DNA of 64,000 nt from Weeksellaceae bacterium (GCA_048268105.1 JBLWWH010000004.1:89209-153208), one strand, 5' to 3'. Shown: positions 2,411 through 33,035, numbered from the stretch's first letter. Numbers and translations: made by a program. The notes: generated by a model from the letters alone, not told the origin.

Positions 2411-4216
2411 ATGAAAGAAATTCTTAGTTTTTTTGTATTTATTCTCTTGAGTTTAACTGTCCTAGCTCAAGAAGAAATTCAGCTCGATAGTCTCATCACG
2501 AAAGCTAGAACCTATCCACTCACCATGAACAAAGTGGATGAAAATTACATTTTGATTACAAAACACGACATTCAAAACACTCCTTCTCAAAGCGTGGAAG
2601 AATTGATTGCTTATCAAACGGGAATCGATCTTCGTCGACGTGGTATTGATGGAATGCAGGGGGATATTTCCATTCGAGGTGGAAGTTTTGAGCAAGTTCT
2701 TCTTATTATCAATGGTGTTCGTTTATCAGACACCCAAACAGGCCACAATCTTTGGAATCTACCTTTCGATTTATCGAGTATAGAGAGAATTGAAATTATT
2801 AAAGGACCTGCCGCACGTAAATTTGGTTCCAACGCATTTGCTGGAGTCATTCATATCATCACAAAAGTTGATGACGAAAATAGCATTGCTTTACGCGGAG
2901 TGGGAGGTAGCTATGGAACCTATGATCTAGGCTTTTCGGCTAATGCAGGTACATCAAAGTTCAAAAATAGCATCAGTGCAAATTATGGAGCATCCGATGG
3001 GTATAGGTATAACACCGATTATAAAAAAACCAGCGCTTATTATCAAAGCTCTTTGGATATCCAACAAGGTCAAATTAATTTACAAGCTGGTTTTGTTGAG
3101 AAAAAATTCGGAGCTAATGGATTTTATGCTTCTCCAAGTTTTAAAGATCAATACGAAGAAACACAAAATTCAATTGTTAGTTTAGGCCTTGATAAAAGAG
3201 TCAATAATTGGGGCTTTAAAGCTTCTACTTACTGGAAACGTGCACAAGACATGTACTTATTAAAAAAAAACGACCCTAGTTTCTATAGAAATATGCATAT
3301 CGGAAATAATGTTGGAGTAGAAGCCTCAGCTAGTTTTATTAATGCATTGGGGGTAACCGGTATTGGTGCTGAATTTAGGAAAGAAATGCTACGTAGCAAT
3401 AGCTTAGGAAGTCATGACAGAGAAATCAGCTCTATGTTTTTAGAACACAATTTTTCTTTATTCGATAATAAATTAAACATTACACCTGGATTCAACTGGA
3501 CAAACTATTCCAACCGTGGTGATTTTTTCTATCCAGGTTTAGAAGTTGGGTATGAAATCAATAAATTCAACAAACTATACGCGCACGCAGCCAAAGTACA
3601 CAGAATTCCTTCTTACACCGAATTGTTTTACGATAGCCCAGTGGAGGTAGGAAATGAAGATTTAAATCCAGAAACCGCAAATTCATTTGAGTTAGGATAT
3701 CGCTATGTGCAACCCACATTTGTGGGAAAACTGAGCTTATTCTACAAACAAACTGGTGATGCCATCGATTGGGTAAAGCAAAGCGAATCCGATGCTTGGC
3801 AAGCTTATAACGTTGCAGATATAGATGTAAAAGGAGTGGAGTTGACCATGCGCAAGAGCTTCACAGGATTTATAAGCTCCCTTGAGTTGGGATATACATA
3901 TTTGGATAAAACCTTTGCCAATGAAGATTTCGAAATGTCTAAAAATGTTTTAGATAATCTTAGAAATCATGTGGTTTTAAAAATGGAAAACCAATTATAC
4001 AAAGACTTAAGAAGCGGAATCACCTTTCGATACCTAGATCGTATCGCTTTAGATAATTACAGTCTTTTGGACGCAAAATTAGATTACAGAAAATCAAATT
4101 GGAATCTGTTCACATCCTTCAATAATATACTAGGAACAGATTACACAGAATCTAGTTTGGTACCGATGCCTGGTTTTTGGTTTAGTTTAGGTGCAAATTA
4201 TAAATTCAAATTATAA
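2411..4216 (+). CDS. TonB-dependent outer-membrane receptor (plug plus 22-strand barrel)
   Basis: It has an N-terminal signal peptide. The plug-domain pattern is present (DISIRGGSFEQVLLIINGVRLSD...IERIEIIKGPAARKFGSNAFAGVIHIITK). The barrel is long and Gly/aromatic-rich and ends in an aromatic-containing terminus (YKFKL). Confidence 0.8.
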   Translation: MKEILSFFVFILLSLTVLAQEEIQLDSLITKARTYPLTMNKVDENYILITKHDIQNTPSQSVEELIAYQTGIDLRRRGIDGMQGDISIRGGSFEQVLLIINGVRLSDTQTGHNLWNLPFDLSSIERIEIIKGPAARKFGSNAFAGVIHIITKVDDENSIALRGVGGSYGTYDLGFSANAGTSKFKNSISANYGASDGYRYNTDYKKTSAYYQSSLDIQQGQINLQAGFVEKKFGANGFYASPSFKDQYEETQNSIVSLGLDKRVNNWGFKASTYWKRAQDMYLLKKNDPSFYRNMHIGNNVGVEASASFINALGVTGIGAEFRKEMLRSNSLGSHDREISSMFLEHNFSLFDNKLNITPGFNWTNYSNRGDFFYPGLEVGYEINKFNKLYAHAAKVHRIPSYTELFYDSPVEVGNEDLNPETANSFELGYRYVQPTFVGKLSLFYKQTGDAIDWVKQSESDAWQAYNVADIDVKGVELTMRKSFTGFISSLELGYTYLDKTFANEDFEMSKNVLDNLRNHVVLKMENQLYKDLRSGITFRYLDRIALDNYSLLDAKLDYRKSNWNLFTSFNNILGTDYTESSLVPMPGFWFSLGANYKFKL

Positions 4217-4273
4217 ATTCGATTAGAAAAAAGTATCTTTGTCTACACAATTCATATCCACAAAAATTCCACC

Positions 4274-4993
4274 ATGGAAAAAAAAGAAATGCTATACGAA
4301 GGTAAAGCAAAGCAGATATATGCTACCGACAATCCCAACGAAGTAATTGTTTACTTCAAAGATGATGCAACTGCATTCAATGCGCAAAAGCGTGGTAGTT
4401 TCGACCACAAAGGGACAATGAACAACGCTATTACGGTACTCATTTTCGAATACCTGAGAGACAATGGAATCCCAACTCATTTCATCAAAAGTCTAAACGA
4501 CCGCGAGCAATTAGTTAAAAAAGTAGATATTGTTCCCTTGGAATTCGTAACGCGCAACTACATCGCCGGAAGTATGGCAAAACGTCTAGGTCTAGAAGAG
4601 GGCGGAAAATGCGAAAACACGGTTTACGATATTTGCTACAAAAATGATGACCTTGGAGATCCGCTTATCAACGATGATCATGCAGTATTATTAGGTGCTG
4701 CAACTTATGATGAGTTGCTAGATATGTACGAACTTACCGCTGACATCAACGACTTGTTGATAGAATTATTCGATGAGGCTGGGCTTATACTTGCCGATTC
4801 CAAAATCGAATTAGGTAAAACCATGGATGGCGAACTGGTATTGGCAGATGAAATTTCTCCAGACACTTGTCGCTTGTGGGATAAGGAAACTGGTAAAAAA
4901 TTAGACAAAGACCGTTTCAGAAGAGACTTGGGCGAGGTGTCTGAAGCTTATTTAGAAGTTCATGAGCGCTTATTAAAAATCTTAAAGAAATAA
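4274..4993 (+). CDS. purC: Phosphoribosylaminoimidazole-succinocarboxamide (SAICAR) synthase
   Basis: The N-terminus [15 protein letters not shown] and its length (239 aa) are typical of PurC. Confidence 0.92.
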
Positions 4994-5000
4994 ACTATAC

Positions 5001-5032
5001 AAGCCGATCTATTCACTAGGTCGGCTTTTTTA
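5001..5032 (+). terminator. Rho-independent terminator after purC (stem AAGCCGA / TCGGCTT followed by T-run)
   Basis: The inverted repeat aagccgatctattcactaggtcggctttttt lies immediately downstream of the purC stop. Confidence 0.6.
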
Positions 5033-5431
5033 TTGGGTTATATTAGCTAGGGCGAATTTTTATCTTGTCATTAAATTAACAAGATAAAAACCGGGCTTTT
5101 TGTTCCAATCTTGTCATGATTTGCCGACAAAAAATCGCACAAAAAGAGCTTCTAAGGTCGCTTTTTTATGCTGTTTTTTGTTAGCGCCAAATCATCACAA
5201 GGATTTCCACGTCAATCCCTTTCGCAACTCCGCGCCCAACATACTGTTTAAAATAAAACCTAGAAATGCCTGCCCAAACCCAATCCCATAGGTGATTGTG
5301 CAACTCATTGAGAATAAATCCTATCTCTCATGTAGACTAAATTAGACTTGTTGCAAGTCGACTCTTTTCTGCTGCTATACCTTCGACATTCCTCGTAAAT
5401 TCCGTATATTTAGCAACATTAATTATATTCT

Positions 5432-8239
5432 ATGAGTTCTACCCAAAACGATAAACGCTTATTCCTATTAGATGCTTATGCATTGATTTTTAGAGGTTAT
5501 TATGCATTTATTAAAAATCCACGAATCAATTCCAAAGGACTCAATACATCTGCTATTATGGGTTTTATGAATGCGCTACTGGATGTGGTAAAGCGTGAAC
5601 AGCCCTCCCACTTGGCTGTTGTTTTCGATGTGGGTAAAAAAGACACAATTCGCCATGAATATTTCCCAGAATATAAAGCCAATAGAGATGAAACGCCAGA
5701 AGGTATTAAAGTCGCAGTTCCTTTTATCATAGAGATTCTAGAGGCCATGCATATTCCGGTGATGTATGCAGAAGGCTATGAGGCAGACGATGTAATCGGC
5801 ACTTTGGCCAAACAAGCCGAAAAAGAAGGCTTCACCACCTATATGATGACGCCCGACAAAGACTTTGCACAGTTGGTTTCGAATAATATTAAAATGTATA
5901 AACCATCTTCGCGCGGAAATGGGGTTGAAATATGGGGTGTTGATGAAGTAAAAGAAAAATTCGGAGTAGATGATCCAATCAAAATCATAGATTATCTCGG
6001 AATGATGGGAGATAGCGCCGATAATATTCCAGGGATTCCCGGTATTGGACCTAAAACCGCTCAAAAGCTTTTGACGGCCTATGGTAGTATGGAAGGTTTG
6101 TATGAGAATTTAGATAAGCTAAAAGGAAAGCAAAAAGAAAATGTTACCAATTTCAAAGAACAAGCATTCCTTTCCAAAAAGTTGGCTACGATCCTTACAG
6201 ACGCACCCGTTGAATTCTGTGAAAAACAATACAATGTAGATACACCTGATTTTGATAAAGTAAAAGAAATATTCACCGAGCTCGAGTTCAGAAGAATGCT
6301 AGAGAATCTTTATAGAACTTATGGTGTAGAGGATAAAATCGACGAAAACAAGCCCGAAATTTCTACCGGCGATCAAATGTCTATGTTTGTTTCAAACGAC
6401 AATGACGAAGTGGTGGTGAGCGATTCAGGATTTAGAACCATAGAAACCCAAGATCATTTCTATCAATTGGTAGACTCACCAATGGGTAGGAGTTTGTTGC
6501 TCAAAAAACTTTTAAAACAAAAAGAAGTTTGTATCGACTGCGAAACGACAGGCTTAAATGCATTAGAAGCAGAATTGGTTGGTTTAGCCTTTTCCTACGA
6601 AGCCGGGAAAGGTTTTTATGTCTCTTTTCCAGAAGACTTTGATGAGGCAAAGGCAATTGTAGAAGAATTTAGAGAAGTTTTAGAGCATTCTGAAATCTTA
6701 AAAATTGGTCAGAACCTCAAGTATGATATGAAAGTTTTATATAAATATGGTATAGAAATCAAGGCACCTATTTATGATACCATGGTAGCGCATTATATTA
6801 TTAATTCAGATATGCGACATGGAATGGATGTATTGTCTGAGACCTATTTGAAGTATAAACCAGTTGATATTGAAACTTTAATTGGCAAAAAGGGGAAAAA
6901 TCAAAAAAACTTCAGACAGATAGATATTGATGTTCAAACAAAGTATGCTGTAGAGGACACCGATATTACTTTGCAACTAAAGCATGTTTTTGATCCAATG
7001 ATTAAAGAAGTTGAAGCTACTAAATTGGTAGAAGAAATAGAATTTCCATTGGTGGGAGTTTTAGCCAACATGGAGCGGAACGGAATTAAAATAGATGTTG
7101 ATGCTCTAAATCAAATGTCTGCGAAATTGGCTGATGAACTAGGTGCATTAGAAGAAAATATCTTCAAAGCAGCAGGGTCTGAGTTTAATGTGAATTCTCC
7201 AAAACAATTAGGAGAAGTATTGTTTGATACGCTTCAAATCGTTGAAAAACCTAAAAAGACAAGAACAGGACAATACAAAACATCAGAAGATGTTTTGGTT
7301 GAACTTAAGGACAAGCACGAAATTGTAAACCATGTTTTAGAATATCGTCAAATCCAAAAATTAAAATCTACCTATGTAGATGCTTTACCCAATGAGGTGA
7401 GTCCAAAAACCGGTAGAATTCATACAACATTTGCCCAAACGATTGCCTCTACTGGTCGATTAGCTTCTAATAATCCTAACCTACAGAATATTCCCATCAG
7501 AACAGAAAGAGGAAGGGAAGTTAGAAAAGCATTTGTTGCCAAAGATGATAATCATGTGCTATTAGCAGCTGATTATTCTCAAATTGAATTACGTTTAATC
7601 GCAGGAATGAGTGGGGACGAAGCTATGACAACTTCTTTCTTAAATGGAGAAGATATTCATGCGGCTACTGCAGCACGTGTTTTTAACATTCCTATCGAGG
7701 AAGTAACTAGAACACAAAGAAACCATGCTAAAACCGTCAATTTTGGTATTATATATGGTGTTTCTGCATTTGGTTTAAGTAATCAAACAGACTTATCTAG
7801 AAGTGAATCAAAAGATTTAATTGATATTTATTTTGAAACTTATCCAAGATTGAAAGAATATATGGACGAGCAGGTTGCTTTTGCTAGAAAGCATGCTTAT
7901 GTTGAAACCTTATTGGGTAGAAGAAGATATTTGCCAAGTATTAATTCAGCCAATTTTGTGGTTAGAAGTCAATCTGAGAGAAATGCTATTAATGCTCCCG
8001 TACAAGGAAGTGCAGCCGATATAATCAAATTGGCCATGGTGAAGCTTCATGAAACATTAAAGGATTATAAAACCAAAATGTTACTTCAGGTACATGATGA
8101 ATTGGTGTTTGAAGTACCAAAAGATGAAGTAGATCACATACAACCCATCATAAAATCAACTATGGAACAGGCTTTAACATTTAAAATTCCTTTGGTTGTT
8201 GAATGTGGAATTGCTAATAATTGGCTTGATGCGCACTAG
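5432..8239 (+). CDS. polA: DNA polymerase I (5'-3' exonuclease, 3'-5' exonuclease-like and polymerase domains)
   Basis: At 935 aa it has an N-terminal FEN-like domain (LLDAYALIFRGYYAF). It carries the polymerase motifs RRxxKTVNFGIIYG and the HDE motif LLQVHDELVFE. Confidence 0.95.
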   Translation: MSSTQNDKRLFLLDAYALIFRGYYAFIKNPRINSKGLNTSAIMGFMNALLDVVKREQPSHLAVVFDVGKKDTIRHEYFPEYKANRDETPEGIKVAVPFIIEILEAMHIPVMYAEGYEADDVIGTLAKQAEKEGFTTYMMTPDKDFAQLVSNNIKMYKPSSRGNGVEIWGVDEVKEKFGVDDPIKIIDYLGMMGDSADNIPGIPGIGPKTAQKLLTAYGSMEGLYENLDKLKGKQKENVTNFKEQAFLSKKLATILTDAPVEFCEKQYNVDTPDFDKVKEIFTELEFRRMLENLYRTYGVEDKIDENKPEISTGDQMSMFVSNDNDEVVVSDSGFRTIETQDHFYQLVDSPMGRSLLLKKLLKQKEVCIDCETTGLNALEAELVGLAFSYEAGKGFYVSFPEDFDEAKAIVEEFREVLEHSEILKIGQNLKYDMKVLYKYGIEIKAPIYDTMVAHYIINSDMRHGMDVLSETYLKYKPVDIETLIGKKGKNQKNFRQIDIDVQTKYAVEDTDITLQLKHVFDPMIKEVEATKLVEEIEFPLVGVLANMERNGIKIDVDALNQMSAKLADELGALEENIFKAAGSEFNVNSPKQLGEVLFDTLQIVEKPKKTRTGQYKTSEDVLVELKDKHEIVNHVLEYRQIQKLKSTYVDALPNEVSPKTGRIHTTFAQTIASTGRLASNNPNLQNIPIRTERGREVRKAFVAKDDNHVLLAADYSQIELRLIAGMSGDEAMTTSFLNGEDIHAATAARVFNIPIEEVTRTQRNHAKTVNFGIIYGVSAFGLSNQTDLSRSESKDLIDIYFETYPRLKEYMDEQVAFARKHAYVETLLGRRRYLPSINSANFVVRSQSERNAINAPVQGSAADIIKLAMVKLHETLKDYKTKMLLQVHDELVFEVPKDEVDHIQPIIKSTMEQALTFKIPLVVECGIANNWLDAH

Positions 8240-17514: not shown

Positions 17515-18231
17515 TTATTTAACTAAAACTTTAGTAGAAGCTGTTTTTCCTGAAGCTGAATTAACAACAACAATGTATTGACCTTTGTTTAGGTTGCTTA
17601 AGTTTAGGTTAAGTTTACCTTGGTTAGCTTTTGTAGCTTTAATCAATTTTCCGCTTACAGAATAGATGTTAATTGTTGAGTTTTCGTGTAAGTCTAACAT
17701 TAAAATATCTTTAATGATAGTATTTTGAACTTGAGACTTAACTGCTTGCTCAATATCTTGAACACCTAAATTTTCATTGTAAATATAATTCACTATCAAA
17801 GGCTCCCCAACCTCAGCACCAAATGTATCGATCATAAAGAATTTAATCTTAGCTGACATATATGGGCTAGATGTGTTTTTGTTCCACATGTGGTCGAACA
17901 TACCTTGAATTCCACCCGGCTGAATAGCTACGGGACTTTGTGGCATAATCAAACCTTGATTAATTGAATAGTAACAAGATCCACCAAAACAAAGCTCGAA
18001 TTCACTCCCATCAGAATCTATAAGTTCTATCACCTCAGCTTTCATTAAAATTAAAGCGTCTGAATCGTTATGTACGATATATCCTAGCTTTGCGTCTTCT
18101 TCAGTAGTAGTGTTAAAAGTAAAAGTTTGACCATTTTCGATAGGTTGGTCATCTATTGTAGTCATTGAAAACTGTGCGTTCGTTTGAACTAGTAAGAATC
18201 CAAGAACTAAAGATAATAATAGTTTTTTCAT
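17515..18231 (-). CDS. Secreted hypothetical protein with T9SS C-terminal sorting domain
   Basis: The signal peptide is MKKLLLSLVLGFLLVQTNAQ. The C-terminus NLNKGQYIVVVNSASGKTASTKVLVK matches the Por-type CTD pattern. Confidence 0.5.
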   Translation of the reverse strand: MKKLLLSLVLGFLLVQTNAQFSMTTIDDQPIENGQTFTFNTTTEEDAKLGYIVHNDSDALILMKAEVIELIDSDGSEFELCFGGSCYYSINQGLIMPQSPVAIQPGGIQGMFDHMWNKNTSSPYMSAKIKFFMIDTFGAEVGEPLIVNYIYNENLGVQDIEQAVKSQVQNTIIKDILMLDLHENSTINIYSVSGKLIKATKANQGKLNLNLSNLNKGQYIVVVNSASGKTASTKVLVK

Positions 18232-22006: not shown

Positions 22007-22414
22007 TTGGCCTATATGAAACTGATAGGATTCATAATATCAACCATTCTACTTGTACAAAGTATGAATTTCCATCTTAGCGATATTGCTAAACTTGGGG
22101 ACCTGGTTGAGCATGCGCAATTTCATCAAAAAGAATATGGGGACGATATGTTTGCTTTTTTCGCTAAGCACTATGGTGAGCTAAAAGCCGAACATGAAAA
22201 GCAAAATCCTTATGAGCACAAAGACCACGAGAATTTACCTTTTCATTGTGATCATCATAATTCAAACAATTTTCAGTTTTTGTTTGCTTTCGAAGATGAA
22301 AATTTGATTCCTACACCTAACTTTTCTGAGTTTAAAGAATTGACTTTGATTTATGTAAGTATTTATAAATCACCTGATTTAAATACAATTTTACAGCCAC
22401 CTCGTTCTATCTAA
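22007..22414 (+). CDS. Small His-rich hypothetical protein with N-terminal hydrophobic segment (possible metal-binding periplasmic or membrane protein)
   Basis: It is an ORF immediately upstream of czcA. The His-rich stretch is EHEKQNPYEHKDHENLPFHCDHHNSN. No family was recognised. Confidence 0.3.
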   Translation: MAYMKLIGFIISTILLVQSMNFHLSDIAKLGDLVEHAQFHQKEYGDDMFAFFAKHYGELKAEHEKQNPYEHKDHENLPFHCDHHNSNNFQFLFAFEDENLIPTPNFSEFKELTLIYVSIYKSPDLNTILQPPRSI

Positions 22415-22523: not shown

Positions 22524-25500
22524 ATGCTTTCACAAATTATAGCGTTTTCAGTTAAAAACAAAATATTAATTTTCCTTTTTACTGCTCTTTTGATTGGCTT
22601 CGGACTTTATTCGGCCACACAAATTTCTATTGGAGCAGTACCTGATATTACAAATAACCAAGTACAAGTAATTACCACTTCCAAAAACTTGTCTACCCAG
22701 GATATGGAGCAATTCATAACCTATCCTATTGAGCTCGAAATGGCAAATTTACCAGGAGTTCAAGAAATTAGATCCGATAGTAAATTTGGATTGTCTGTTG
22801 TAACAATTGTTTTCGATGACGACATGGGGACTTATCTTCCTCGTCAACTCATTGCTGAGAAAATACAAACTGCAGCAGAAAAGATTCCCGAAGGTTTTGG
22901 AACACCAGAGATGGGCCCTATTTCAACTGGATTGGGAGAGATTTATCAATACATTCTCGATGTTGAGCCTGAGTTCAAAGATCGATATACAGATCAGCAA
23001 TTAAGAACTTTCCAAGATTGGATTGTTAAACGTCAATTATCAGGAATTCCTGGTGTGGTTGAGGTTAATACATGGGGAGGACATCTTAAACAATATGAAG
23101 TTGCTATAAATACTCAAAAACTTGCAAGCATGAATGTTACTGCAAGAGAGGTGTTTACGGCTTTAGAAAATAACAATAGTGTAGCAGGTGGTGGATATAT
23201 TGAAAAAGTTAATCAAGCTTATTTTATTCGTGGCGAAGGTTTGATTAAAAACTTAGAAGACATCAAAAATGTAGTGGTTAAAAACACTAATGGTCGTCCA
23301 ATTTATATTCGAGATGTGGCTGAGGTTGGCTATGGTAGCGCAACAAGATTTGGTGCTATTACGGCAAATGGAGAAGGCGAAAAGGTCTTGGGGCAGGTGA
23401 TGATGTTAAAGGATGCTGACTCCAAAAAAGTAATTGATGCCGTAAAAGAACGAGTAGCAGAAATTTCAAAAACGCTGCCTGAGGGAGTTTATATCAATCC
23501 ATTTTTAGAGCGAAGTGAATTGATTGGGAAAACCATGAACACGGTAACCGAGAACTTAGTTTTTGGGTTTTTAATCGTGATTTTTGTGGTTGTTATCTTG
23601 CTCGGAAACTTAAGATCAGGATTGGTAGTAGCTTCAGTAATTCCTTTGAGTTTGTTATTTGCGCTTTCTATGATGCACATTTTTGGTGTTGACGCCAACC
23701 TGATGAGTATGGGAGCGATTGATTTTGGGATTATTATAGATGGAGCTGTGATTATTGTCGAATTCACCACATTTAAAATGATGCAGAATAGGGTAGAAAT
23801 TCAAAATGTTCCAGTTAAGGAAAGACAAAACTTAAAAGATGAAATCTCATTTTCTGGAGCATCAACCATGATGAATTCTGCCATTTTTGGTCAACTTATT
23901 ATTCTAATTGTGTTTATTCCTATTCTCACGTTGCAAGGTGTAGAAGGAAAGATGTTTAGGCCCATGGCATTGGTTTTTAGTTTTGCTTTAATTGGAGCAA
24001 TGATTCTGTGTTTAACTTATGTTCCGGTAGTTTCAGCTTTATTTTTAAAACCTAAAAAATCGGATAAACCTAACTTTTCAGATAAAGTGATAAAGCGTTT
24101 ACAAGCTTATTATTTACAATCCATGAATTCTTTGTTTAAAATTAAATATATAGTTCTTGGTTTTGCCCTCTTTATTTTAATGATTACCGTCTTTATATTC
24201 ACTCGAATGGGTGGTGAGTTTATACCTCAGTTAGACGAAAATGACTTTGTGATTCAACCAGTTTTAAAAACTGGAACTTCTCTTCAAAAGACCATTGAAA
24301 CCACAACAAGAATCGAGAAAATATTAATTGAACAATTCCCAGAGGTAAACCAAGTAGTGACTCGAATTGGTGCTGCCGAAGTTCCTACCGACCCCATGAG
24401 TATGGAAGAGAGTGATGTCATTATTACGATGAAACCAAAAAGTGAATGGACTTCAGCTAAGAATCGAGACGAAATGGCAAATAAATTTGAGGAGGCATTA
24501 TCTGTGATTCCAGGGATGGAAGTAGAATTTACGCAACCTATCGAAATGCGTTTTAATGAGTTAATTACAGGAGTTAGAGCGGATATTGCCATCAAAGTAT
24601 TCGGAGAAGATTTAAGCATTTTGGCAAAAAAAGGTGAAGAAATTAAAGCTTTGGTGGAAAATGTTGAAGGAGCAAGCGATGTGGTGGTAGATAAAATCGA
24701 GGGTTTACCACAAATGAATGTGAGCTACAATCGTCATAAAATCGCTCGCTATGGATTGAATATCGCTGATGTAAATGATGTGCTTTCGATGGCTTTTGGT
24801 GGAAAAGTAGTCGGGAATGTTTTCGAAGGCGAGAGAAATTTTGATTTAATAGTTAGGCTTGGTGCAGAACAACGTAAGGATATTGATGACATTAAAAATC
24901 TAATGATAGACTTACCCAATGGTGGAAAACTTCCTATGTCTGAATTGGCTGAAATCTCATATACCAAAGGAGCTGCAAGGATTTCACGCGATGATACCAA
25001 GCGCCGAATGGTGGTGGGTGTAAATGTGAGAGACAGAGATTTGCAATCGGTGGCAGAAGAAATTCAAGAATTAATTGGTGAAAATATTGAATTGCCCACT
25101 GGTTACAGCATTGATTATGGAGGTCAGTTTGAGAATCTGCAAAGCGCCACCCGTCGATTGTTGTTGGCGGTTCCGATTTCATTATTATTGATTTTTGTGT
25201 TGTTATACTTTGCTTTTAAATCGGTGAAAGAAGCTTTGCTTATATATTCTGCGATTCCATTGGCTGCAGTGGGTGGTGTTTTATTATTGTGGATGCGAGA
25301 TTTGCCTTTCAGTATTTCTGCGGGCGTTGGTTTTATTGCTTTGTTCGGAATTGCTGTATTGAATGGAATTGTATTGATTGAACATTTTAAAGAATTAAAA
25401 TTGGAGAATTATAAAAATTTAGAAGAATTGATTAAACAAGGAGCTCAAGATAGAATGCGCGCCGTTTTGTTAACGGCTATGGCGGCGATGCTTGGTTTCC

Positions 25501-26837
25501 TACCCATGGCGGTTTCTACCGGTGCTGGCGCGGAAGTTCAGCGTCCGTTGGCAACGGTTGTGATTGGCGGTTTGCTTACTTCCACCTTATTAACTTTAAT
25601 TATTCTACCTATTTTATATTCCATATTTATGCGAAAAAAGAAAATAAAATTAGATGTAAAACCTGTCGTAACCGTTTTGTTATTGTTGGTTGGCGTGGGA
25701 TTAAGCGCACAACAAGAACCGCTTGGTTTGGAAGAGTTGCAAGCTATAGCCTTAGAAAATAATGTAGGAATTCAAGCCTATCAGTTTAAAATTGATGAAG
25801 CTGAAGCTTTGATAGATACTTATAAAAATGTGGATAAAACACATATTTATGCGGGTCGAGATCAGAATAATTTGGGCAGTAATAATAAGGTAATGAATGT
25901 GATAGGAGCGGAGCAAGATTTTTCTTTACCTTCTGTTTACAAGGCCAATAAAAAATTAAAAGAAGCTGAGTTTGAAATCATCAATAAACAAATGTTGGTG
26001 GAACATAAAAGGTTAATAAAAGAGGTAACCTTGGCATATTATCAGTTTCAAACGGAAAAACAGAAAGAGAAAATTTATTTTGAGCTCGACAGTATGTACG
26101 GAAAATTTGCCCACATGGCGCAACGTAGATATGAATTGGGAGAAAGTAATTATTTAGAAAAAATAACCGCTAGTGCCAAGCAACGACAAGTGAATTTAGC
26201 CTATGAACAAGCAAAGATTGATGGACAAATCGCTTATGAACAAATCCAAAAATGGGTTCAGATTCAAGATAGTTTGTGGATTGAGATTTTGCCTCTTTCC
26301 AAACCGATAAGGACAGATTTAATGCTCAACAATACTGCAGAAATGCAGGTGCTGGACCAACAATTCCAAATGTTGGACGCAAAATATGATTATCAGAAAA
26401 AGAAAAAACTTCCTGATTTCACGTTGGAATTATTTAATAGTTTTAATCTGGAATCTTATCAACCTGGTTTTCAAGTAGGTATTAAACTTCCTTTCTTCAA
26501 TCAACAATATAATGCCCAATATAAATCCATAGAAATGGGAAAAAAAAGCATTGAAAAGCAGAAAGAAAATTTGAATCTGATGTTTAATTCAGAATATCAA
26601 AGGCTTTTAAATACGGTAGAAAAACATACCAAAGCCTTGAAATATTACGAAGAAGAAGGAATGACCTTAGCCGATGAAATTGTGAAAACGGCAGAAAAAA
26701 GTTTTCTGTATGGCGAAATAGATTTCTTTCAATATATCCAAAGTTTGGAAAATGCGTATCAAATTAAAATTGATTATTTAGATCAGTTGAATTCCTTTAA
26801 CCAAACCATTATCAACCTTAATTATATAAGTCTATGA
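22524..26837 (+). CDS. czcA: CzcA/CusA-family heavy-metal-efflux RND transporter fused in-frame to a TolC/CzcC-like outer-membrane factor (1437 aa)
   Basis: The first ~1035 aa form a canonical HME-RND pump with 12 TM segments and two large periplasmic loops. From the Met at nt 25629 an MRKKKIKLD...LLLLVGVGLSAQ signal-peptide-like segment begins. It is followed by ~400 aa with the coiled/barrel OMF pattern (LEELQAIALENN...). Confidence 0.85.
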   Translation: MLSQIIAFSVKNKILIFLFTALLIGFGLYSATQISIGAVPDITNNQVQVITTSKNLSTQDMEQFITYPIELEMANLPGVQEIRSDSKFGLSVVTIVFDDDMGTYLPRQLIAEKIQTAAEKIPEGFGTPEMGPISTGLGEIYQYILDVEPEFKDRYTDQQLRTFQDWIVKRQLSGIPGVVEVNTWGGHLKQYEVAINTQKLASMNVTAREVFTALENNNSVAGGGYIEKVNQAYFIRGEGLIKNLEDIKNVVVKNTNGRPIYIRDVAEVGYGSATRFGAITANGEGEKVLGQVMMLKDADSKKVIDAVKERVAEISKTLPEGVYINPFLERSELIGKTMNTVTENLVFGFLIVIFVVVILLGNLRSGLVVASVIPLSLLFALSMMHIFGVDANLMSMGAIDFGIIIDGAVIIVEFTTFKMMQNRVEIQNVPVKERQNLKDEISFSGASTMMNSAIFGQLIILIVFIPILTLQGVEGKMFRPMALVFSFALIGAMILCLTYVPVVSALFLKPKKSDKPNFSDKVIKRLQAYYLQSMNSLFKIKYIVLGFALFILMITVFIFTRMGGEFIPQLDENDFVIQPVLKTGTSLQKTIETTTRIEKILIEQFPEVNQVVTRIGAAEVPTDPMSMEESDVIITMKPKSEWTSAKNRDEMANKFEEALSVIPGMEVEFTQPIEMRFNELITGVRADIAIKVFGEDLSILAKKGEEIKALVENVEGASDVVVDKIEGLPQMNVSYNRHKIARYGLNIADVNDVLSMAFGGKVVGNVFEGERNFDLIVRLGAEQRKDIDDIKNLMIDLPNGGKLPMSELAEISYTKGAARISRDDTKRRMVVGVNVRDRDLQSVAEEIQELIGENIELPTGYSIDYGGQFENLQSATRRLLLAVPISLLLIFVLLYFAFKSVKEALLIYSAIPLAAVGGVLLLWMRDLPFSISAGVGFIALFGIAVLNGIVLIEHFKELKLENYKNLEELIKQGAQDRMRAVLLTAMAAMLGFLPMAVSTGAGAEVQRPLATVVIGGLLTSTLLTLIILPILYSIFMRKKKIKLDVKPVVTVLLLLVGVGLSAQQEPLGLEELQAIALENNVGIQAYQFKIDEAEALIDTYKNVDKTHIYAGRDQNNLGSNNKVMNVIGAEQDFSLPSVYKANKKLKEAEFEIINKQMLVEHKRLIKEVTLAYYQFQTEKQKEKIYFELDSMYGKFAHMAQRRYELGESNYLEKITASAKQRQVNLAYEQAKIDGQIAYEQIQKWVQIQDSLWIEILPLSKPIRTDLMLNNTAEMQVLDQQFQMLDAKYDYQKKKKLPDFTLELFNSFNLESYQPGFQVGIKLPFFNQQYNAQYKSIEMGKKSIEKQKENLNLMFNSEYQRLLNTVEKHTKALKYYEEEGMTLADEIVKTAEKSFLYGEIDFFQYIQSLENAYQIKIDYLDQLNSFNQTIINLNYISL

Positions 26838-28054
26838 AAGCGCTACCCATAAAAAATAGCCAAAACTTTAAATTTAAAACAAAAATGCAATTTAATCATA
26901 TTGTAAATCACGTTTCTATGAATTTAGTAAAATATATTAGTTTATTCATATTATTGGTTTTTATTTCTTCTTGTTCAAACGAAAAAGAAGAACAGAATTT
27001 AGCCTCAACAGACGCTCCAACAGAACTTAAAGACAATCAAATATCGGTGAGCCAACAGCAATTTGACATGAATGAAATGCATTTGGTGAAAGGTGAGGAG
27101 CGCAATTTTCCGGCGAGTATTCCCGTCAACGGAATGATAGACGTTCCGCCGAGATATAAAGCGGTAGTGTACGCTACCACAGGTGGTTACATTAATACTT
27201 CTAATTTTATGGAAGGAGATTATGTCCGCAAAGGTCAAGTGATTGCAACGATTGAAAATCCAGAATTGGTGACGATGCAACAAGAATATCTGGAATTGAG
27301 TCAGGATTTAAATTATTTAAAAACCGAAATGGATCGACAAAAATTGATGTATGATGAGAAAATCACAGCGCAAAAGAATTATTTAAAAGCGCAAAGTGAA
27401 TACAATACCGCCAAAGCGAGACACAGCGGTTTGAAGAAGCAATTAACTTTATTTAATATTTCGCCTACCCAAGCTGCTCGTGGAAACTTCTCTTCTGCCG
27501 TGAATATTTATGCACCGATTGCAGGTTATGTCATGCGCGTAAATGTTATCAAAGGAACCCATGTTTCGCCTTCCACAGAGATTTTAGAAATTGTGGATAA
27601 CAATCATTTACATGTTGAATTAACGGTGTTTGAAAAAGACGCTATGAACATTGAAAAAGGTCAAAAAGTTTTGTTCAGCATTCCAGAAATGGCGGCAACT
27701 CCCTTTGAGGCAGAAGTTTATTTAATCGGAAAAACCATCGATGCCGACCGAACCGTTCGGGTTTTTGCCCACTTGAGCCAGGAAGATAAAAACAAATTCT
27801 TAACCGGAATGTTTGTAGAAGCCGAAATCGTCACAAAAGATAACCACGGAATAGCTTTGCCAGAAACGGCAGTAGCAGAAATAGATGACAGTTTCTTTGC
27901 TTTGAAATTAAAAGAAAAAGCAGAAGATGCTTATCTTTTCGAAGAAGTTGAAGTAGAGGTAGGCGAAACCAAAAATGGATTTACCCAGATTACATCAAAA
28001 ATAGATTCCACCGCACAATTCTTGGACAAAGGTGTTTATGAACTGGTGCAGTAA
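26834..28054 (+). CDS. czcB: Efflux RND periplasmic adaptor (membrane fusion protein, CzcB/HlyD family)
   Basis: The start overlaps the czcA stop by ATGA. The lipoprotein-like signal is LFILLVFISSC (an alternative start lies at ~26918). Biotinyl/lipoyl-like and beta-barrel MFP motifs are present (QVIATIENPELV...YAPIAGYV). Confidence 0.78.
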   Translation: MKALPIKNSQNFKFKTKMQFNHIVNHVSMNLVKYISLFILLVFISSCSNEKEEQNLASTDAPTELKDNQISVSQQQFDMNEMHLVKGEERNFPASIPVNGMIDVPPRYKAVVYATTGGYINTSNFMEGDYVRKGQVIATIENPELVTMQQEYLELSQDLNYLKTEMDRQKLMYDEKITAQKNYLKAQSEYNTAKARHSGLKKQLTLFNISPTQAARGNFSSAVNIYAPIAGYVMRVNVIKGTHVSPSTEILEIVDNNHLHVELTVFEKDAMNIEKGQKVLFSIPEMAATPFEAEVYLIGKTIDADRTVRVFAHLSQEDKNKFLTGMFVEAEIVTKDNHGIALPETAVAEIDDSFFALKLKEKAEDAYLFEEVEVEVGETKNGFTQITSKIDSTAQFLDKGVYELVQ

Positions 28055-28109: not shown

Positions 28110-28856
28110 TTAAGAAAGTTTGCGTAAATTTTCTTCTAAACGTGCAATTCTATCTTCAAAATCTTCCACTTTGTCTGGAATCCTTCTGTAGAAAACATAT
28201 CGAATTCTCCAGAGTTCTTTTATGTCTTTGTGGTCAATCCGAATATCGTCGATGCTTTTATGGTCCGCCCGAAGAATAATACCGTGAGAGGTAGTGAACA
28301 TTCTGCGAAATATCAGTTGATTTTCAGCTAGTACCAAAACTGGGGTTCCATTATTTAATTTTTTAATCACACTTTTAGGTGTCCATTCACCAATCACAAC
28401 ATCTTTTGGAAAAAAACCATTGTCGCGATCGGTCATTTCTAAATCTGTAATCGTATAAGCTCGAAATCGCTTTTCTGAATTAATCGGTAAACGCAAACTC
28501 GGCATATCTTGAATAAACTTGGTTTTATCTGCGTTTAAGATATATTCTTTGGCGTTATTTTCAGTGATACATGGGATAGAAGGAAAACTTTCTTTCATGG
28601 TTTCGTCAGCACCCAATGTTAATTCACCTTTAAATTTCAACAATTGATTAACGGTTAACTCTTTCGTTAGCAAATCATCTATGGGAATGCTAAAGTAATT
28701 AGCAATATTAATAATCGTATCGATTTTTGGTTCACTTCTTTCTTCTTCATAAGCACCTAAAGTCGCTCGTTTTAAGTCAAATAGCTCTGCAAAACTTTGC
28801 TGTGAGAGAGATTTAATTCCACGAATCTTTTTTATATTTTTTCCAAAAAATGACAT
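28110..28856 (-). CDS. XRE-family helix-turn-helix transcriptional regulator with C-terminal LexA/S24-peptidase-like domain
   Basis: The N-terminal HTH_XRE is IKKIRGIKSLSQQSFAELFDLKRATLGAYEEERSEPKIDTIINIANYFSIPIDDLL. The C-terminal ~140 aa have an S24-like beta pattern (VLVLAENQLIFRRM...GIILRADHKSI). Confidence 0.6.
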   Translation of the reverse strand: MSFFGKNIKKIRGIKSLSQQSFAELFDLKRATLGAYEEERSEPKIDTIINIANYFSIPIDDLLTKELTVNQLLKFKGELTLGADETMKESFPSIPCITENNAKEYILNADKTKFIQDMPSLRLPINSEKRFRAYTITDLEMTDRDNGFFPKDVVIGEWTPKSVIKKLNNGTPVLVLAENQLIFRRMFTTSHGIILRADHKSIDDIRIDHKDIKELWRIRYVFYRRIPDKVEDFEDRIARLEENLRKLS

Positions 28857-29116: not shown

Positions 29117-29512
29117 ATGAATGATAATTTCCAAATGGTGAAAAATTACTTAACCGACCTTAAGTATGAAATATCCTTTGAAAACAAGGAAGAAGGCATC
29201 ATGGTCATTCAAAAAGAAAGTAATGGTGTAAGAAACCTAATTTTAGGAGTTGCAACACCGATTTTAATTTTAGAGCAATTTATTTTTAAAATTAACAACC
29301 AATCAGAAATGATTTTTAAAAGTTTATTGCAAAAAAATCGTGATATCATCCATGGCGCTTTTGTGTTGGAAGAAACAGGAGAAAAAGTAATCTTCAGAGA
29401 TACACTTCAGTTGGAGAATTTAGATTTAAATGAATTAGAAGCTTCGCTGAACTCGCTTGGTTTATTGCTGAGTGAATATGCTGACAAAATTATTGAATTC
29501 TCAAAATACTAA
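29117..29512 (+). CDS. Small cytosolic protein, YbjN/T3SS-chaperone-like fold candidate (PspA-associated)
   Basis: It is 131 aa. It ends 18 bp upstream of pspA. Weak resemblance to YbjN-family proteins. The assignment is tentative. Confidence 0.35.
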   Translation: MNDNFQMVKNYLTDLKYEISFENKEEGIMVIQKESNGVRNLILGVATPILILEQFIFKINNQSEMIFKSLLQKNRDIIHGAFVLEETGEKVIFRDTLQLENLDLNELEASLNSLGLLLSEYADKIIEFSKY

Positions 29513-29530
29513 CAATTAAAAACAAACAAA

Positions 29531-30241
29531 ATGAATATTTTTAAAAGACTATTTAAAATAGGTGAATCAGAAGCGAATGCTGCGATTGACAACATGGAAG
29601 ATCCCATTAAATTAACCGAACAATCTATTCGTGATTTAAAAATGGATTTAAGCAAAAACTTGGAATCTTTAGCACAAGTGAAGGCTTTGGCTATTCGCGC
29701 CAATAACGACAAAGAAAACTATGAAAATGAAGCCGAAGAGTTTCACAACAAAGCTATTCTTATCGTTAAAAAAGGTCAATCAGGAAGTTTAGAAGTAGAA
29801 GAATCCGACCGATTGGCGCAAGAAGCTTTGGTGAGAAAAGAAGAAAAGTTATCTCTTGCGAAAAACGCTAAATTAGAATCAGAGAAAATTCATGGTTCTG
29901 TTCAGGAATTGGAATCTAATATTGCACAATTAAAAAGCACCATCAGCAATTGGGAAAATGAGCTGAATACGCTGAAAGCACGCGTGAAAGTGAGCAAAGC
30001 CAAAACCAGTTTAAACAAACAAATGGCAGAATTGGACAGTTCTGGTTCGGTGGCGATGTTGGAGCGAATGAAAGAAAAAGTAGCGCAGCAAGAGGCTTTG
30101 GCAGACGCCTATGGTGATATCGCCAAAAACTACAAACCCATTGATGATGCCATTGACAAAGCTGCAGATTTCAGCAAGGAAAATGCAAAAGATGCGTTGG
30201 AGAATCTCAAAAAACAATTGAACCAAAACAAAGACGCTTAA
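29531..30241 (+). CDS. pspA: PspA/IM30/Vipp1-family protein (phage-shock protein A; ESCRT-III superfamily)
   Basis: It is a 236-aa all-helical coiled-coil. The N-terminal amphipathic helix is MNIFKRLFKIG and the IM30 pattern ...AIDNMEDPIKLTEQSIRDLKMDL... is present. Confidence 0.8.
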   Translation: MNIFKRLFKIGESEANAAIDNMEDPIKLTEQSIRDLKMDLSKNLESLAQVKALAIRANNDKENYENEAEEFHNKAILIVKKGQSGSLEVEESDRLAQEALVRKEEKLSLAKNAKLESEKIHGSVQELESNIAQLKSTISNWENELNTLKARVKVSKAKTSLNKQMAELDSSGSVAMLERMKEKVAQQEALADAYGDIAKNYKPIDDAIDKAADFSKENAKDALENLKKQLNQNKDA

Positions 30242-30244
30242 ACC

Positions 30245-30958
30245 GTGAACGACTTTATTGATTTAGTATTTTCAACTGTAAACCTTCCGCTGAGTTTATT
30301 GCTTATCATCTTAATTCTCTATTGGATTTTTACGATGATCAGCGGTATCGACTTCGACCTCGATTTTGATGTGGATATCGACATCGACACCGATTTTGAT
30401 TTGGACATGGACGCTGGCATAGAAGGTGGAAATGCGGATTTTGAAGATGTAGCCAGCACAGAAATTAACCAAGAAGATATTGTCGGTCGAAGACAAAAAC
30501 CCCTGAAATGGTGGCAAGTTTTTCTTATTTATTTCAATTTTGTGGGTTTGCCTTTTATGTTCACGTTCACAGTCTTTGTGTTTGCTTGGTGGTTTATCAC
30601 CATGGTGACAACAGATTTAACTTTTTCGGCAAATCATTGGGTAGGCGTTATTATATTTATATTAGCCATTATTCCCGCACTTATTTTCACTAAAATCTTC
30701 ACAACTCCTTTCAAAGCTTTCTTTGCTAAATTGAACAAAGATGGCGACCAAGCCATTGATTTCTTAGGCAGAAAAGGCACCAGTTTATCCACTATTAAAG
30801 ACGATAAAATGGGAAGAGCAGAAATTATGGTCAATGGAAGCCCCATGAACCTGTATATCAAATCATTGCATGGTGAAGAAATAGCTTATCATCAAAGTAT
30901 TTTAATCATTAAAGAATCATCAGATAAAAACTTTTTTTACGTAGAATCCTATAACTAA
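30245..30958 (+). CDS. YqiJ/NfeD-like inner-membrane protein (DUF1449-like) with C-terminal OB-fold, partner of flotillin
   Basis: It has TM helices and a C-terminal soluble beta domain (GRKGTSLSTIKDDKMGRAEIMVNGSPMNLYIKSL). It is positioned like yqiJ upstream of the yqiK-type flotillin. It contains the acidic D-x-D repeat. Confidence 0.55.
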   Translation: MNDFIDLVFSTVNLPLSLLLIILILYWIFTMISGIDFDLDFDVDIDIDTDFDLDMDAGIEGGNADFEDVASTEINQEDIVGRRQKPLKWWQVFLIYFNFVGLPFMFTFTVFVFAWWFITMVTTDLTFSANHWVGVIIFILAIIPALIFTKIFTTPFKAFFAKLNKDGDQAIDFLGRKGTSLSTIKDDKMGRAEIMVNGSPMNLYIKSLHGEEIAYHQSILIIKESSDKNFFYVESYN

Positions 30959-30965
30959 TAATTAA

Positions 30966-33035
30966 ATGAACTCAATTTTAACCATTGTCATTGTAGCCAT
31001 CGTGCTCGTCCTCTTTTTGGTGATTGTCTATTTCGCCATTATTGCCATGTTCTATCGCAAAGTACCACAAGGTGAAGCGCTCGTAAGAACTGGATTTGGA
31101 GGAATTAAAATCGCAACCGATAAAGGAATGTATGCTATTCCAGTCTTGCACAAAATAGAAATCATGGATATTTCTGTAAAGAAAATCCAAATTGAAAGAA
31201 CACATACAGAAGGTCTTGTTTGTCGAGATAATATGCGAGCAGACATAAAAGTAGCCTACTTTGTTCGGGTAAACAATGAAGTCGATGCCATTAAAAAAGT
31301 GGCACAAACCATCGGTTGTAATCGCGCTTCTGACATTGAAACCTTGCGCGATTTATTCGAAGCTAAATTTTCTGAAGCTTTAAAAACCGTGGGTAAAAAA
31401 TTCGATTTTATTGAATTATATGAAGCACGTCGTGAATTCCGGGATGAAATCGTGAATATTATAGGCACAGACCTAAATGGTTATACCTTAGAAGATTGTG
31501 CGATTGATTATTTGGAGCAAACGCCGCTTGAATATTTAAAACCAGATAATATCTTAGATGCAGAAGGAATTAAAAAAGTGACAGAATTAACGGCCGTTCA
31601 GAATATGAAAGCCAATTTCATTAAAAGAGATGAAGAAAAAACCATTCGCAAACAAGATGTAGAGGCGCGCGAGGCTATTCTAGAATTAGATAAACAATTG
31701 GCGGAAAAAGAAGAACAACAGAAACGTGAAATATCGAATATCCAATCTCGGGAACATGCAGAAATCCTGAAAGTAGCTGAAGAAGAAAGATTAAAATCTG
31801 AAACGGCACGAATTGCAACAGAAGAAAAAGTGAAAGTTGCAGAAGAAAATATGTTACGACAAATTATTGTTGCCGAAAAGAATAAACTCCGTACAGATGC
31901 TGTTGAAACCGAGCGAGTTGAAAAAGATAGAATGCTAGAAGCAACTGAACGTGAGCGAATTGTAACTTTAGCGCAAATAGAAAAAGAGAAAGTTGTTGAG
32001 GTAGAGAAAAAGAATATTCAAGATGTGATTCGAGAGCGAGTTTCTCTGGAGAAAGGAGTTGTGCAAGAGCAAGAAAACATGAAGGATATCGAAGCTTTTA
32101 AAACTGCAGATCGTGAGAAACAAGTGAAAATCACCGTCGCTGAAGGTAATGCACAAGAAGATTTGATCAAAGTAATCAAAGCCGCAGAAGCCGCCAAAGA
32201 AGCTGCAAAACAACGCGCAGAAGAAATAAATATCGAAGCACAGGCACACAAAGAAGCCAGTGAAAAAGAAGCAGAAGCTCGTAAAACTTTAGCCGAAGCC
32301 AAAGCCAAAGAGGATGCAACGCTTGGATTAGCAGAAGCCCAAGTGATGCATGCCAAAGCAGACGCGAACGAAAGAGAAGGATTGGTGAAAGCCTCTATCA
32401 CAGAGAAACAAGCACTTGCCGAAGCCAAAGGAATTGAAGCCAAAGCCGATGCAAAACGTAAAGATGGTATTGCTGAGGCCGATGTGATCAAAGAAAAAGC
32501 ATTGGCGGATGCCGCTGGAATTGTTGAGAAAGCAGATGCCATGAAAAAACTAGACGGTGTTGGAAAAGAACACGAAGAGTTTAAGTTGCAGTTAGACAAA
32601 GAATTACAAGTTGATTTAGCGCACATTAATATCCAAAAAGACATTGCCGATGCACAAGCACAAGTGATTGGAGATGCCTTGAAAGCTGCGAAAATTGATA
32701 TCGTGGGTGGCGAAACCATGTTCTTTGATCAGATTATTGGTCAAATTACAAGAGCTAAGGGATTAGATCGTCTTGTAAACCACAGTGAAAATGTGAAACA
32801 AGTGAAGGATGCTTTATTGGGTGGCGATGATGAAGTGAAAGGAAATTTATTGGAAAAAATTAAAGATTTCTCCGATAAATATAATATTTCGTCAGAAGAC
32901 ATTAAAAACTTATCGATTGCTAATTTGATTTTTAATATGCAAAATCAAGCGAAAGATAAAGACGAACAAAACATGTTGTCCAACCTGTTGAATTTAGCCA
33001 AAGGAATGGGTATTGAAAATAAAAAGTTGAAATAA
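30966..33035 (+). CDS. Flotillin-family SPFH/band-7 protein (YqiK-like) with long Ala/Glu/Lys-rich coiled-coil extension
   Basis: The N-terminal TM is followed by the SPFH core (VRTGFGGIKIATDKGMYAIPVLHKIEIMDISVKKIQI). Long EA-rich heptads follow. It is 689 aa. Confidence 0.85.
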   Translation: MNSILTIVIVAIVLVLFLVIVYFAIIAMFYRKVPQGEALVRTGFGGIKIATDKGMYAIPVLHKIEIMDISVKKIQIERTHTEGLVCRDNMRADIKVAYFVRVNNEVDAIKKVAQTIGCNRASDIETLRDLFEAKFSEALKTVGKKFDFIELYEARREFRDEIVNIIGTDLNGYTLEDCAIDYLEQTPLEYLKPDNILDAEGIKKVTELTAVQNMKANFIKRDEEKTIRKQDVEAREAILELDKQLAEKEEQQKREISNIQSREHAEILKVAEEERLKSETARIATEEKVKVAEENMLRQIIVAEKNKLRTDAVETERVEKDRMLEATERERIVTLAQIEKEKVVEVEKKNIQDVIRERVSLEKGVVQEQENMKDIEAFKTADREKQVKITVAEGNAQEDLIKVIKAAEAAKEAAKQRAEEINIEAQAHKEASEKEAEARKTLAEAKAKEDATLGLAEAQVMHAKADANEREGLVKASITEKQALAEAKGIEAKADAKRKDGIAEADVIKEKALADAAGIVEKADAMKKLDGVGKEHEEFKLQLDKELQVDLAHINIQKDIADAQAQVIGDALKAAKIDIVGGETMFFDQIIGQITRAKGLDRLVNHSENVKQVKDALLGGDDEVKGNLLEKIKDFSDKYNISSEDIKNLSIANLIFNMQNQAKDKDEQNMLSNLLNLAKGMGIENKKLK

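Follow-up and report, generated by a model that had tools for sequence, protein, structure and literature searches.

A CzcA-type metal efflux pump and its TolC-type outer-membrane factor in one conserved reading frame of Flavobacteriales, with a predicted internal signal peptide at the junction

Background

Can a single translation product supply both membranes of a Gram-negative envelope? The question is raised by a gene at 22524..26837, on the plus strand, in a 64,000-nucleotide (nt) stretch of Weeksellaceae DNA (GCA_048268105.1, JBLWWH010000004.1:89209-153208; this whole stretch is referred to below as the window). The gene is a single open reading frame (ORF) of 1437 codons plus a stop, in which a czcA-type heavy-metal efflux pump of the resistance-nodulation-division (RND) superfamily is followed in frame by an outer-membrane factor (OMF), an arrangement written here as czcA::OMF.

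The components themselves are familiar. The CzcCBA, ZneCAB and CusCBA systems of Cupriavidus metallidurans and E. coli are built from the same three parts as the locus described here: a heavy metal efflux (HME) RND pump, an OMF with the TolC/CusC fold and a CzcB/CusB-type periplasmic adaptor. In the window, however, pump and OMF occupy one frame, the order is A::C-B, and the predicted signal peptide is internal, after 12 transmembrane (TM) helices. CusC is also a lipoprotein, whereas the OMF here is not. An OMF is usually recognised as a separate polypeptide with an N-terminal Sec signal peptide; the signal-like segment of this one is internal, past residue 1035. The locus is a variation on a well-known efflux system, not a new kind of system.

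An earlier note on this DNA had claimed the fusion and named three ways in which the cell might deal with it: an uncut chain with an extra TM pass, separation after translation, and internal initiation of a separately exported OMF. Is the fusion a real gene, or were two ordinary genes merged by a missed stop codon? If it is real, is the chain cut at the junction, is the OMF started separately, or does it work while attached to the pump? Here we investigate the fused gene, its fused homologues and its split relatives.

Results and Discussion

Two complete proteins in one frame

No stop codon interrupts the 1437-amino-acid (aa) frame between its two halves, and the in-frame fusion was described correctly, to the nucleotide, in the earlier note. 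The pump part comprises residues 1-1035 (22524..25628, on the plus strand like every other part of the gene). Pfam ACR_tran matches residues 5-1035 with 932 bits, over profile positions 1-1020 of 1021, and NCBIfam TIGR00914 (CusA/CzcA) matches residues 1-1041 with 1156.9 bits against a cut-off of 701.45, over model positions 1-1041 of 1051. The closest solved structures are ZneA (4k0e; E 2e-195, query residues 3-1038) and CusA (E 3e-181); multidrug pumps match far worse (MdtB, 5e-79; AcrB, about 1e-59). Judged by these matches, the pump part is a full-length HME-RND permease of the CusA/CzcA family. Its TM4 reads IDFGIIIDGAVIIVEF and holds all of the acidic residues of DFGx3DGAx3VEN, with F rather than N at the last position. 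Nies is said to have described this motif in 2003 as the TM4 proton relay of divalent-cation HME pumps, and we take DFGx3DGAx3VE to indicate the divalent-cation (Zn/Co/Cd/Ni) type rather than the CusA type. By its sequence relationships the whole is a metal efflux system of the CzcCBA/ZneCAB type.

The C-terminal ~400 residues match Pfam OEP in two stretches reaching residue 1435 (86.6 bits, cut-off 22), and two such stretches are likewise found in three distant fusions (P0195, P0217, P0233). Together with the ACR_tran match this upholds the domain boundaries that had been claimed, 1-1035 and 1036-1437. An AlphaFold2 model of the C-terminal 402 residues has a mean predicted local distance difference test score (pLDDT) of 89.2 and a predicted template modelling score (pTM) of 0.79. 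The modelled topology is duplicated (helix, two strands, a long helix of ~69 residues and a long return helix). With this model Foldseek retrieved OprJ, SilC, CusC, TolC, OprM, CmeC, VceC and MtrE at a probability of 1.00 and E values from 1e-16 to 1e-13; template modelling scores to these TolC-type structures were 0.68-0.75 over about 400 columns. As modelled, the C-terminal part is a full-length OMF protomer of the TolC/CusC type, without a lipobox cysteine.

Between the two halves the sequence runs ...ILPILYSIFMRKKKIKLDVKPVVTVLLLLVGVGLSAQQEPLG, which resembles a signal peptide with an Ala-Gln cleavage site, as had been claimed for it. TM12 ends with ...LTLIILPILYSIF. It is followed by a predicted cytoplasmic n-region, MRKKKIKLDVKP (residues 1036-1047, 25629..25664, net charge +5), whose first residue, Met1036, is encoded by the ATG at nt 25629. 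The hydrophobic core and c-region, VVTVLLLLVGVGLSA (residues 1048-1062, 25665..25709), make up the segment predicted to act as an internal Sec signal peptide; counting Pro1047, 16 aa in a row are uncharged, and the c-region is L-S-A. The signal peptidase I site predicted from the Bacteroidetes Q-rule lies between Ala1062 and Gln1063 (25707..25712, with the cut between nt 25709 and 25710), directly before QQEPLGLEELQAIALENN. The predicted mature OMF would be 375 aa long (residues 1063-1437, 25710..26834) and would begin with QQEPLGLEELQAIALENNVGIQAYQFK, its first residues being QQ.

The fusion is conserved

The whole protein was searched against 5.8 billion proteins and the best 120 clusters were analysed. 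All are 1437-1463 aa long, cover 100% of the query and are 64-88% identical to it. The cluster at 88% belongs to Profundicola chukchiensis (Weeksellaceae, Flavobacteriales), the nearest named relative; the other genera include Tenacibaculum, Maribacter, Winogradskyella, Kordia, Dokdonia, Gillisia and Formosa. The fused homologues carry only the name 'CusA/CzcA family heavy metal efflux RND transporter', and the earlier belief that long CzcA-like genes are annotated in Flavobacteriia is thereby confirmed.

Species-representative genomes were also scanned with the OMF part, as a 7-sequence alignment. At least 590 relatives were found, and the best 80 loci were inspected. In 78 of these 80 a single open frame of at least 1438 aa runs through TM12, the linker and the OMF. 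One of the two exceptions is ended by a contig edge. The other (L004, Maribacter halichondriae CP107030, 2805..7140) is frameshifted within the pump, not at the junction, so that the fused gene lies in two overlapping ORFs, 2805..5342 and 5305..7140; this reflects a pseudogene or else a misassembly in a genome labelled complete. A missed stop or frameshift at the junction had been singled out as fatal to the claim, and the frame open across it in the 78 species-level loci answers that point. The linker before the hydrophobic core varies from 14 to 24 residues among the fused loci and shows little sequence conservation but never breaks the frame, a pattern expected from selection for co-translation of both halves. 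The fusion is real, and is conserved in many marine Flavobacteriales and in deeper fused lineages.

Two further observations were made among the database sequences. One fused locus (L066) comes from a metagenome-assembled genome (MAG) labelled uncultured Saprospiraceae and has a junction of the Aequorivita type, which could reflect a binning or label problem or lateral transfer. Many database entries of 440-550 aa (P0132, P0133, P0137, P0161, P0200 and others) start with Met and have the TM12 motif 20-110 residues before the OMF. These are probably gene calls on truncated or frameshifted fusions; alternatively they are genuinely shortened genes that encode the last pump helices plus the OMF.

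The junction has the features of a signal peptide

In the 120 close homologues the Lys/Arg-rich stretch has a mean net charge of +4.1 and the core a mean Kyte-Doolittle hydropathy of 2.65 over 11 residues. Positions -3 and -1 hold conserved small residues, and a small residue followed by Gln ([A/G/S/T]-Q) stands directly after the core in 118 of the 120, the -1 residue being Ala in 85, Gly in 18, Ser in 13 and Thr in 2. Residues 1036-1437 were also searched against 1.84 billion cluster representatives, which gave 1838 matches. The same junction layout was present in all 22 distant fused representatives that were inspected, and 42 of 43 fused representatives with the pump TM12 motif have the [A/G/S]-Gln motif, with OMF parts 25-40% identical to that of the window. 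In Bacteroidetes, signal peptidase I substrates typically follow a Q-rule, with Gln at +1 after a small residue; glutaminyl cyclase, which in Flavobacteriia is of the plant type, then turns the exposed Gln into pyroglutamate (PMC5837995, PMC10653852). The only stretch of the OMF model with pLDDT below 50, G1057-Q1063 (residues 22-28 of the modelled piece), is the predicted cleavage region.

The matches to residues 1036-1437 are headed by standalone OMFs, 397-420 aa in length (P0121, for instance, has 399 aa and 40% identity). These start with ordinary N-terminal signal peptides, such as MNRNRLALLFTLLVSSGFA cut before QTPLELEDLMALSLKNN. In a 16-sequence alignment the internal segment of the window aligns with the N-terminal signal peptides of the standalone proteins (397-408 aa), and the remainder aligns end to end. 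The [AGST]-Q motif follows the core in 53 of 59 full-length standalone representatives. Core hydrophobicity is alike in the two groups (median 2.75 in fused and 2.77 in standalone proteins, p=0.5). The non-polar run is 15-16 aa in the fusions against 14 in standalone OMFs (p ~1e-4 to 2e-4); this run was used as the measure of segment length, and the distance from the last charge to the cut, which is distorted by Lys and Arg residues in the c-region, was dropped. A stable membrane anchor has about 20 residues, and the fused run is still shorter than this. That hydrophobic regions are shorter in signal peptides than in signal anchors is stated in PMC2120157. Judged by alignment and motif, the junction segment is homologous to true N-terminal signal peptides.

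Lipoprotein processing by signal peptidase II was considered and rejected. No homologue has a cysteine near the site, and the lack of a lipobox cysteine excludes this enzyme.

Close relatives encode two separate proteins

A comparison with orthologous loci that have a separate OMF gene had been called for, and such loci exist, with the same signal segment at the N-terminus of the OMF. In these split loci (L081 to L085, and those of P0121 and P0124) the order is a small ORF of ~131 aa, czcA (1044 aa), the OMF gene (399-402 aa) and czcB. The proteins are orthologous to those of the window, the gene order is the same and so is the [AGS]-Gln site; one of the OMFs, in Massilibacteroides, is annotated as 'TolC family protein'. 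They differ in that two polypeptides are made, from a czcA gene that shares its last 4 or 8 nt with the start of the OMF gene. In L081 the pump ends with ...LPVLYAYTHNVKFRRIRNKNNGI and its TGA overlaps the OMF start codon in ATGA (4 nt); in L083 the overlap is 8 nt.

The split loci are close relatives of fused ones. The L081 pump is 84% identical to that of fused Flagellimonas, and the OMF 63-64% identical. Ranked by identity to the Flagellimonas pump, split L081 stands 14th of 82, above 68 fused pumps of other genera, all of which are at or below 80.5%; the L083 split pump ranks 23rd of 82 by identity to the Tenacibaculum pump. By this similarity ranking the split and fused states appear interspersed among close relatives, a small indel apart. 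In the close split relatives the two proteins are separate polypeptides, and the simplest reading is therefore that they are separate in the fused state too.

The linker itself is very basic in 12 Flagellimonas, Muricauda and Allomuricauda loci, as in THNIKFRGMRKRRKERRMRKRNALT. The basic stretch of the split relative L081 is much shorter, with THNVKFRRIRNKNNGI before the stop of the pump and MNRNR at the start of the OMF.

A proposed polyprotein for two membranes

We propose, with a probability of roughly 0.7, that the gene encodes a two-membrane polyprotein and that signal peptidase I cuts this chain in two at the internal signal peptide. Comparative evidence supports the proposal well. The ribosome would make one chain, of which the 12-helix pump would insert co-translationally in the inner membrane, leaving its C-terminus on the cytoplasmic side. 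The Lys/Arg-rich stretch 1036-1047 would stay inside, and the hydrophobic segment 1048-1060 would re-engage the Sec translocon with its N-terminus in and its C-terminus out, so that the OMF is threaded into the periplasm. Signal peptidase I would then cut after Ala1062, between nt 25709 and 25710, and free a 375-residue OMF starting with Gln1063, which glutaminyl cyclase would probably convert to pyroglutamate, as in most exported proteins of Bacteroidetes. The pump would keep residues 1036-1062, with the signal peptide as a 13th, C-terminal membrane-spanning helix. The freed OMF would trimerise in the outer membrane and, with CzcA trimers and the CzcB adaptor, form an ordinary tripartite efflux pump for divalent metals.

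The geometry of the chain bears on this proposal. From the cut site to the first OMF helix there are about 6 residues (QQEPLG), and the spacing is the same in fused and standalone proteins. The AlphaFold2 model places the beginning of the first helix about 33 residues beneath the beta-barrel, a distance of roughly half the periplasmic tunnel. Assembled AcrAB-TolC and CusCBA have the adaptor and the pump's periplasmic domain beneath the OMF. A tether of ~6 residues could not bridge the distance from the inner membrane to a barrel in the outer membrane, which makes an uncut chain implausible on geometric grounds. Among the three routes of the earlier note, separation is strongly favoured, by the motif in 118/120 and 42/43 proteins and by the alignment of the segment with the signal peptides of standalone orthologues.

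Several points weigh against cleavage by signal peptidase I. The cleavage site rests on motif and homology. The non-polar run of the fused proteins is 1-2 residues longer than in standalone signal peptides, which could mean that the segment has acquired an anchoring role. In the window and its three closest relatives an in-frame ATG stands where the OMF start would be, and some added independent initiation of the OMF is possible. Conservation of the motif could in part reflect shared ancestry and not current function, which is unlikely at 25-40% identity.

What might the cell gain from such an arrangement? We speculate that the benefit would lie in an enforced 1:1 output of pump and channel (3:3 in the complex) from a single translation initiation. 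This might be helpful in a phylum whose ribosomes do not respond to Shine-Dalgarno sequences and which would have no re-initiation guided by them. On balance we favour the wider view that these bacteria routinely make an OMF at the C-terminus of a polytopic inner-membrane transporter. Its export would be co-translational, following 12 TM helices, instead of the post-translational route usual for outer-membrane proteins; signal peptidase I would release it in 1:1 stoichiometry with the pump, and its signal peptide would be left on the pump as a permanent 13th helix, perhaps with a role of its own such as packing on the RND TM domain (compare AcrZ).

Other routes to the outer-membrane factor

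Translation could instead begin anew at the ATG at 25629 (Met1036) and give a separate OMF that has its own N-terminal signal peptide; the read-through fusion would then be a tolerated by-product or a minor form. In the window, as in P0002, P0003 and L001, this in-frame ATG is the very first codon of the n-region, and the split relatives use just such an OMF start codon. Initiation in Bacteroidetes takes place without a Shine-Dalgarno sequence (PMC6847099), so that an AT-rich, unstructured context could allow it. However, ribosomes of Flavobacterium johnsoniae, which ignore Shine-Dalgarno sequences, have adenine at -3 as a main positive determinant of initiation (PMC6847099), and the ATG at 25629 is preceded by T/C-rich sequence with T at -3, unlike clear gene starts nearby, which follow A-rich sequence. 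Met1036 is found only in the three closest proteins and the Profundicola locus. A Met anywhere in the linker is present in 26 of the 120 homologues, at no fixed position, and between TM12 and the core of 79 fused loci there is an in-frame ATG in 29, any ATG, GTG or TTG in 51 and none of these in 28. Since the linker is highly variable and still never breaks the frame, synthesis of the OMF appears to depend on upstream translation. We therefore regard this explanation as unlikely. As a general mechanism internal initiation is rejected, because Met1036 is not conserved and 28 of the 79 loci have no possible start codon; in this strain it is a possible side route, though not the one that preserves the fused design. 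The earlier suggestion of a start at 25629 thus keeps its place as a possibility for this organism and its three closest relatives, and loses it for the family.

Separation might also be the work of another protease or occur at another site, either by an intramembrane protease inside the segment or by a periplasmic protease that trims the linker. Signal peptides are normally degraded by intramembrane proteases after cleavage by signal peptidase, and the same enzymes might act on the fused segment. The conserved features, however, are exactly those of a signal peptidase I site, small residues at -3 and -1 and, in Bacteroidetes, Gln at +1, which leaves this explanation improbable.

A permanent fusion, in which the segment is a 13th TM helix and the OMF works while attached to the pump, would account for the lack of a stop codon between the halves and for a non-polar run somewhat longer than that of standalone signal peptides (15-16 against 14 aa). 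Uncleaved fusions exist in the RND superfamily, Thermus SecDF being an example given in PMC8277102. Yet the tether from segment to first OMF helix is about 6 residues in all homologues, and the model of the OMF is that of a complete TolC-type protomer, so that its barrel has to be placed in the outer membrane. A permanent fusion also leaves the strictly conserved small-residue/Gln motif unexplained, the split orthologues function as separate proteins, and a core of 15-16 residues is short for a stable membrane anchor (PMC2120157). We consider it very unlikely.

That a missed stop or a frameshift merged two ordinary genes, or that the gene is a pseudogene, can be dismissed as having next to no probability: split and fused relatives do differ by a small indel at the 4- or 8-nt overlap, so that a single-base error could create an apparent fusion, and one relative (L004) does carry a frameshift, though inside the pump, but the same fusion is found in more than 120 independent protein clusters and in the 78 of 80 species-level loci, from isolates and MAGs and from many sequencing groups, an identical protein is also present on an NCBI contig, and sequencing error and pseudogene are both rejected by the conservation of the open frame across species.

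Relation to known systems

Cleavage of a membrane polyprotein by signal peptidase I, as preferred here, would have precedents. Mechanistically the closest known to us is FbcH of Bradyrhizobium japonicum, reportedly described by Thony-Meyer and colleagues between 1989 and 1991, which is said to be a cytochrome b-c1 precursor cut at an internal signal sequence. FbcH is likewise described as a polytopic inner-membrane protein followed in the same chain by an exported partner, with the internal signal sequence at the cut. Both of its products are said to stay in an inner-membrane complex, whereas the second product of the fused gene would go to the outer membrane as a channel. Viral envelope polyproteins such as bunyavirus Gn/Gc have internal signal peptides that serve both as re-entry signals and as host signal-peptidase sites, and give equimolar products (PMC7926653); they are systems of the eukaryotic endoplasmic reticulum, their proteins are unrelated, and they are a more distant precedent. 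In Thermus thermophilus SecDF the partners of an RND-type machine are likewise one polypeptide. SecD and SecF, however, are both inner-membrane proteins that stay joined, and neither a signal-peptidase site nor a partner in the outer membrane is present (PMC8277102).

No description of an RND::OMF fusion was found in the searchable literature, and an earlier mention elsewhere is possible. It is not described in the accessible part of a 2021 review of tripartite pumps (PMC8277102), in a census of Bacteroides transporters (PMC6281302) or in PMC11960050.

The surrounding genes

The fused gene is followed by a gene for a czcB-type periplasmic adaptor of 406 aa (26834..28054, plus strand; HlyD_D23, and TIGR01730 RND_mfp with 142.7 bits); its start codon and the fused gene's stop codon overlap as ATGA. 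A tblastn search of the 64-kb window with seven OMF queries, by which very distant OMFs would be missed, found no second OMF-like sequence. Within that sensitivity, the claim that the czc locus has no separate OMF gene holds.

Directly 5' of the pump gene lies a small His-rich ORF (22007..22414, plus strand), 135 aa long if counted from the first TTG, its true start being uncertain. It contains ...HAQFHQKEYG...EHEKQNPYEHKDHENLPFHCDHHNSNN..., and neither Pfam nor NCBIfam has a matching family. The 131-aa ORF before czcA in the split locus L083 (2368..2763) shares 36% identity with it (E 2e-25). The small ORF of the window, conserved in this position, is probably a member of the operon, and it may be a metal-binding or regulatory accessory of operons of this type.

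Convergent with czcB, at 28110..28856 on the minus strand, is a gene for a 248-aa protein with an N-terminal helix-turn-helix domain of the Cro/C1 type, a candidate local regulator. About 1 kb 3' of the efflux operon a cluster on the plus strand (29117..33035) encodes a YbjN/CesT-like protein (29117..29512), PspA/IM30 (29531..30241), a 237-aa ORF without an assigned family (30245..30958) and an SPFH/Band-7 protein of 689 aa (30966..33035); it looks like a membrane-stress module. On the minus strand at 17515..18231 a 238-aa ORF has a Por_Secre_tail, the C-terminal sorting domain of type IX secretion. This is consistent with an origin in Bacteroidota, to which the taxa of the homologues also point.

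Conclusions

If the chain is cut as proposed, the fused gene would be a natural and widespread case of one translation product supplying both membranes of the Gram-negative envelope. Several questions for which artificial constructs are otherwise used could then be put to it: how co-translational export is tolerated by outer-membrane proteins, whether signal peptidase I can process internal signals that follow many TM helices, and what becomes of a signal peptide that stays tied to the protein before it. Hundreds of genomes name the fused gene only 'CusA/CzcA family RND transporter', so that its OMF component is invisible to gene-content surveys of efflux systems and metal resistance. The finding also suggests that Bacteroidota can use gene fusion in place of translational coupling.

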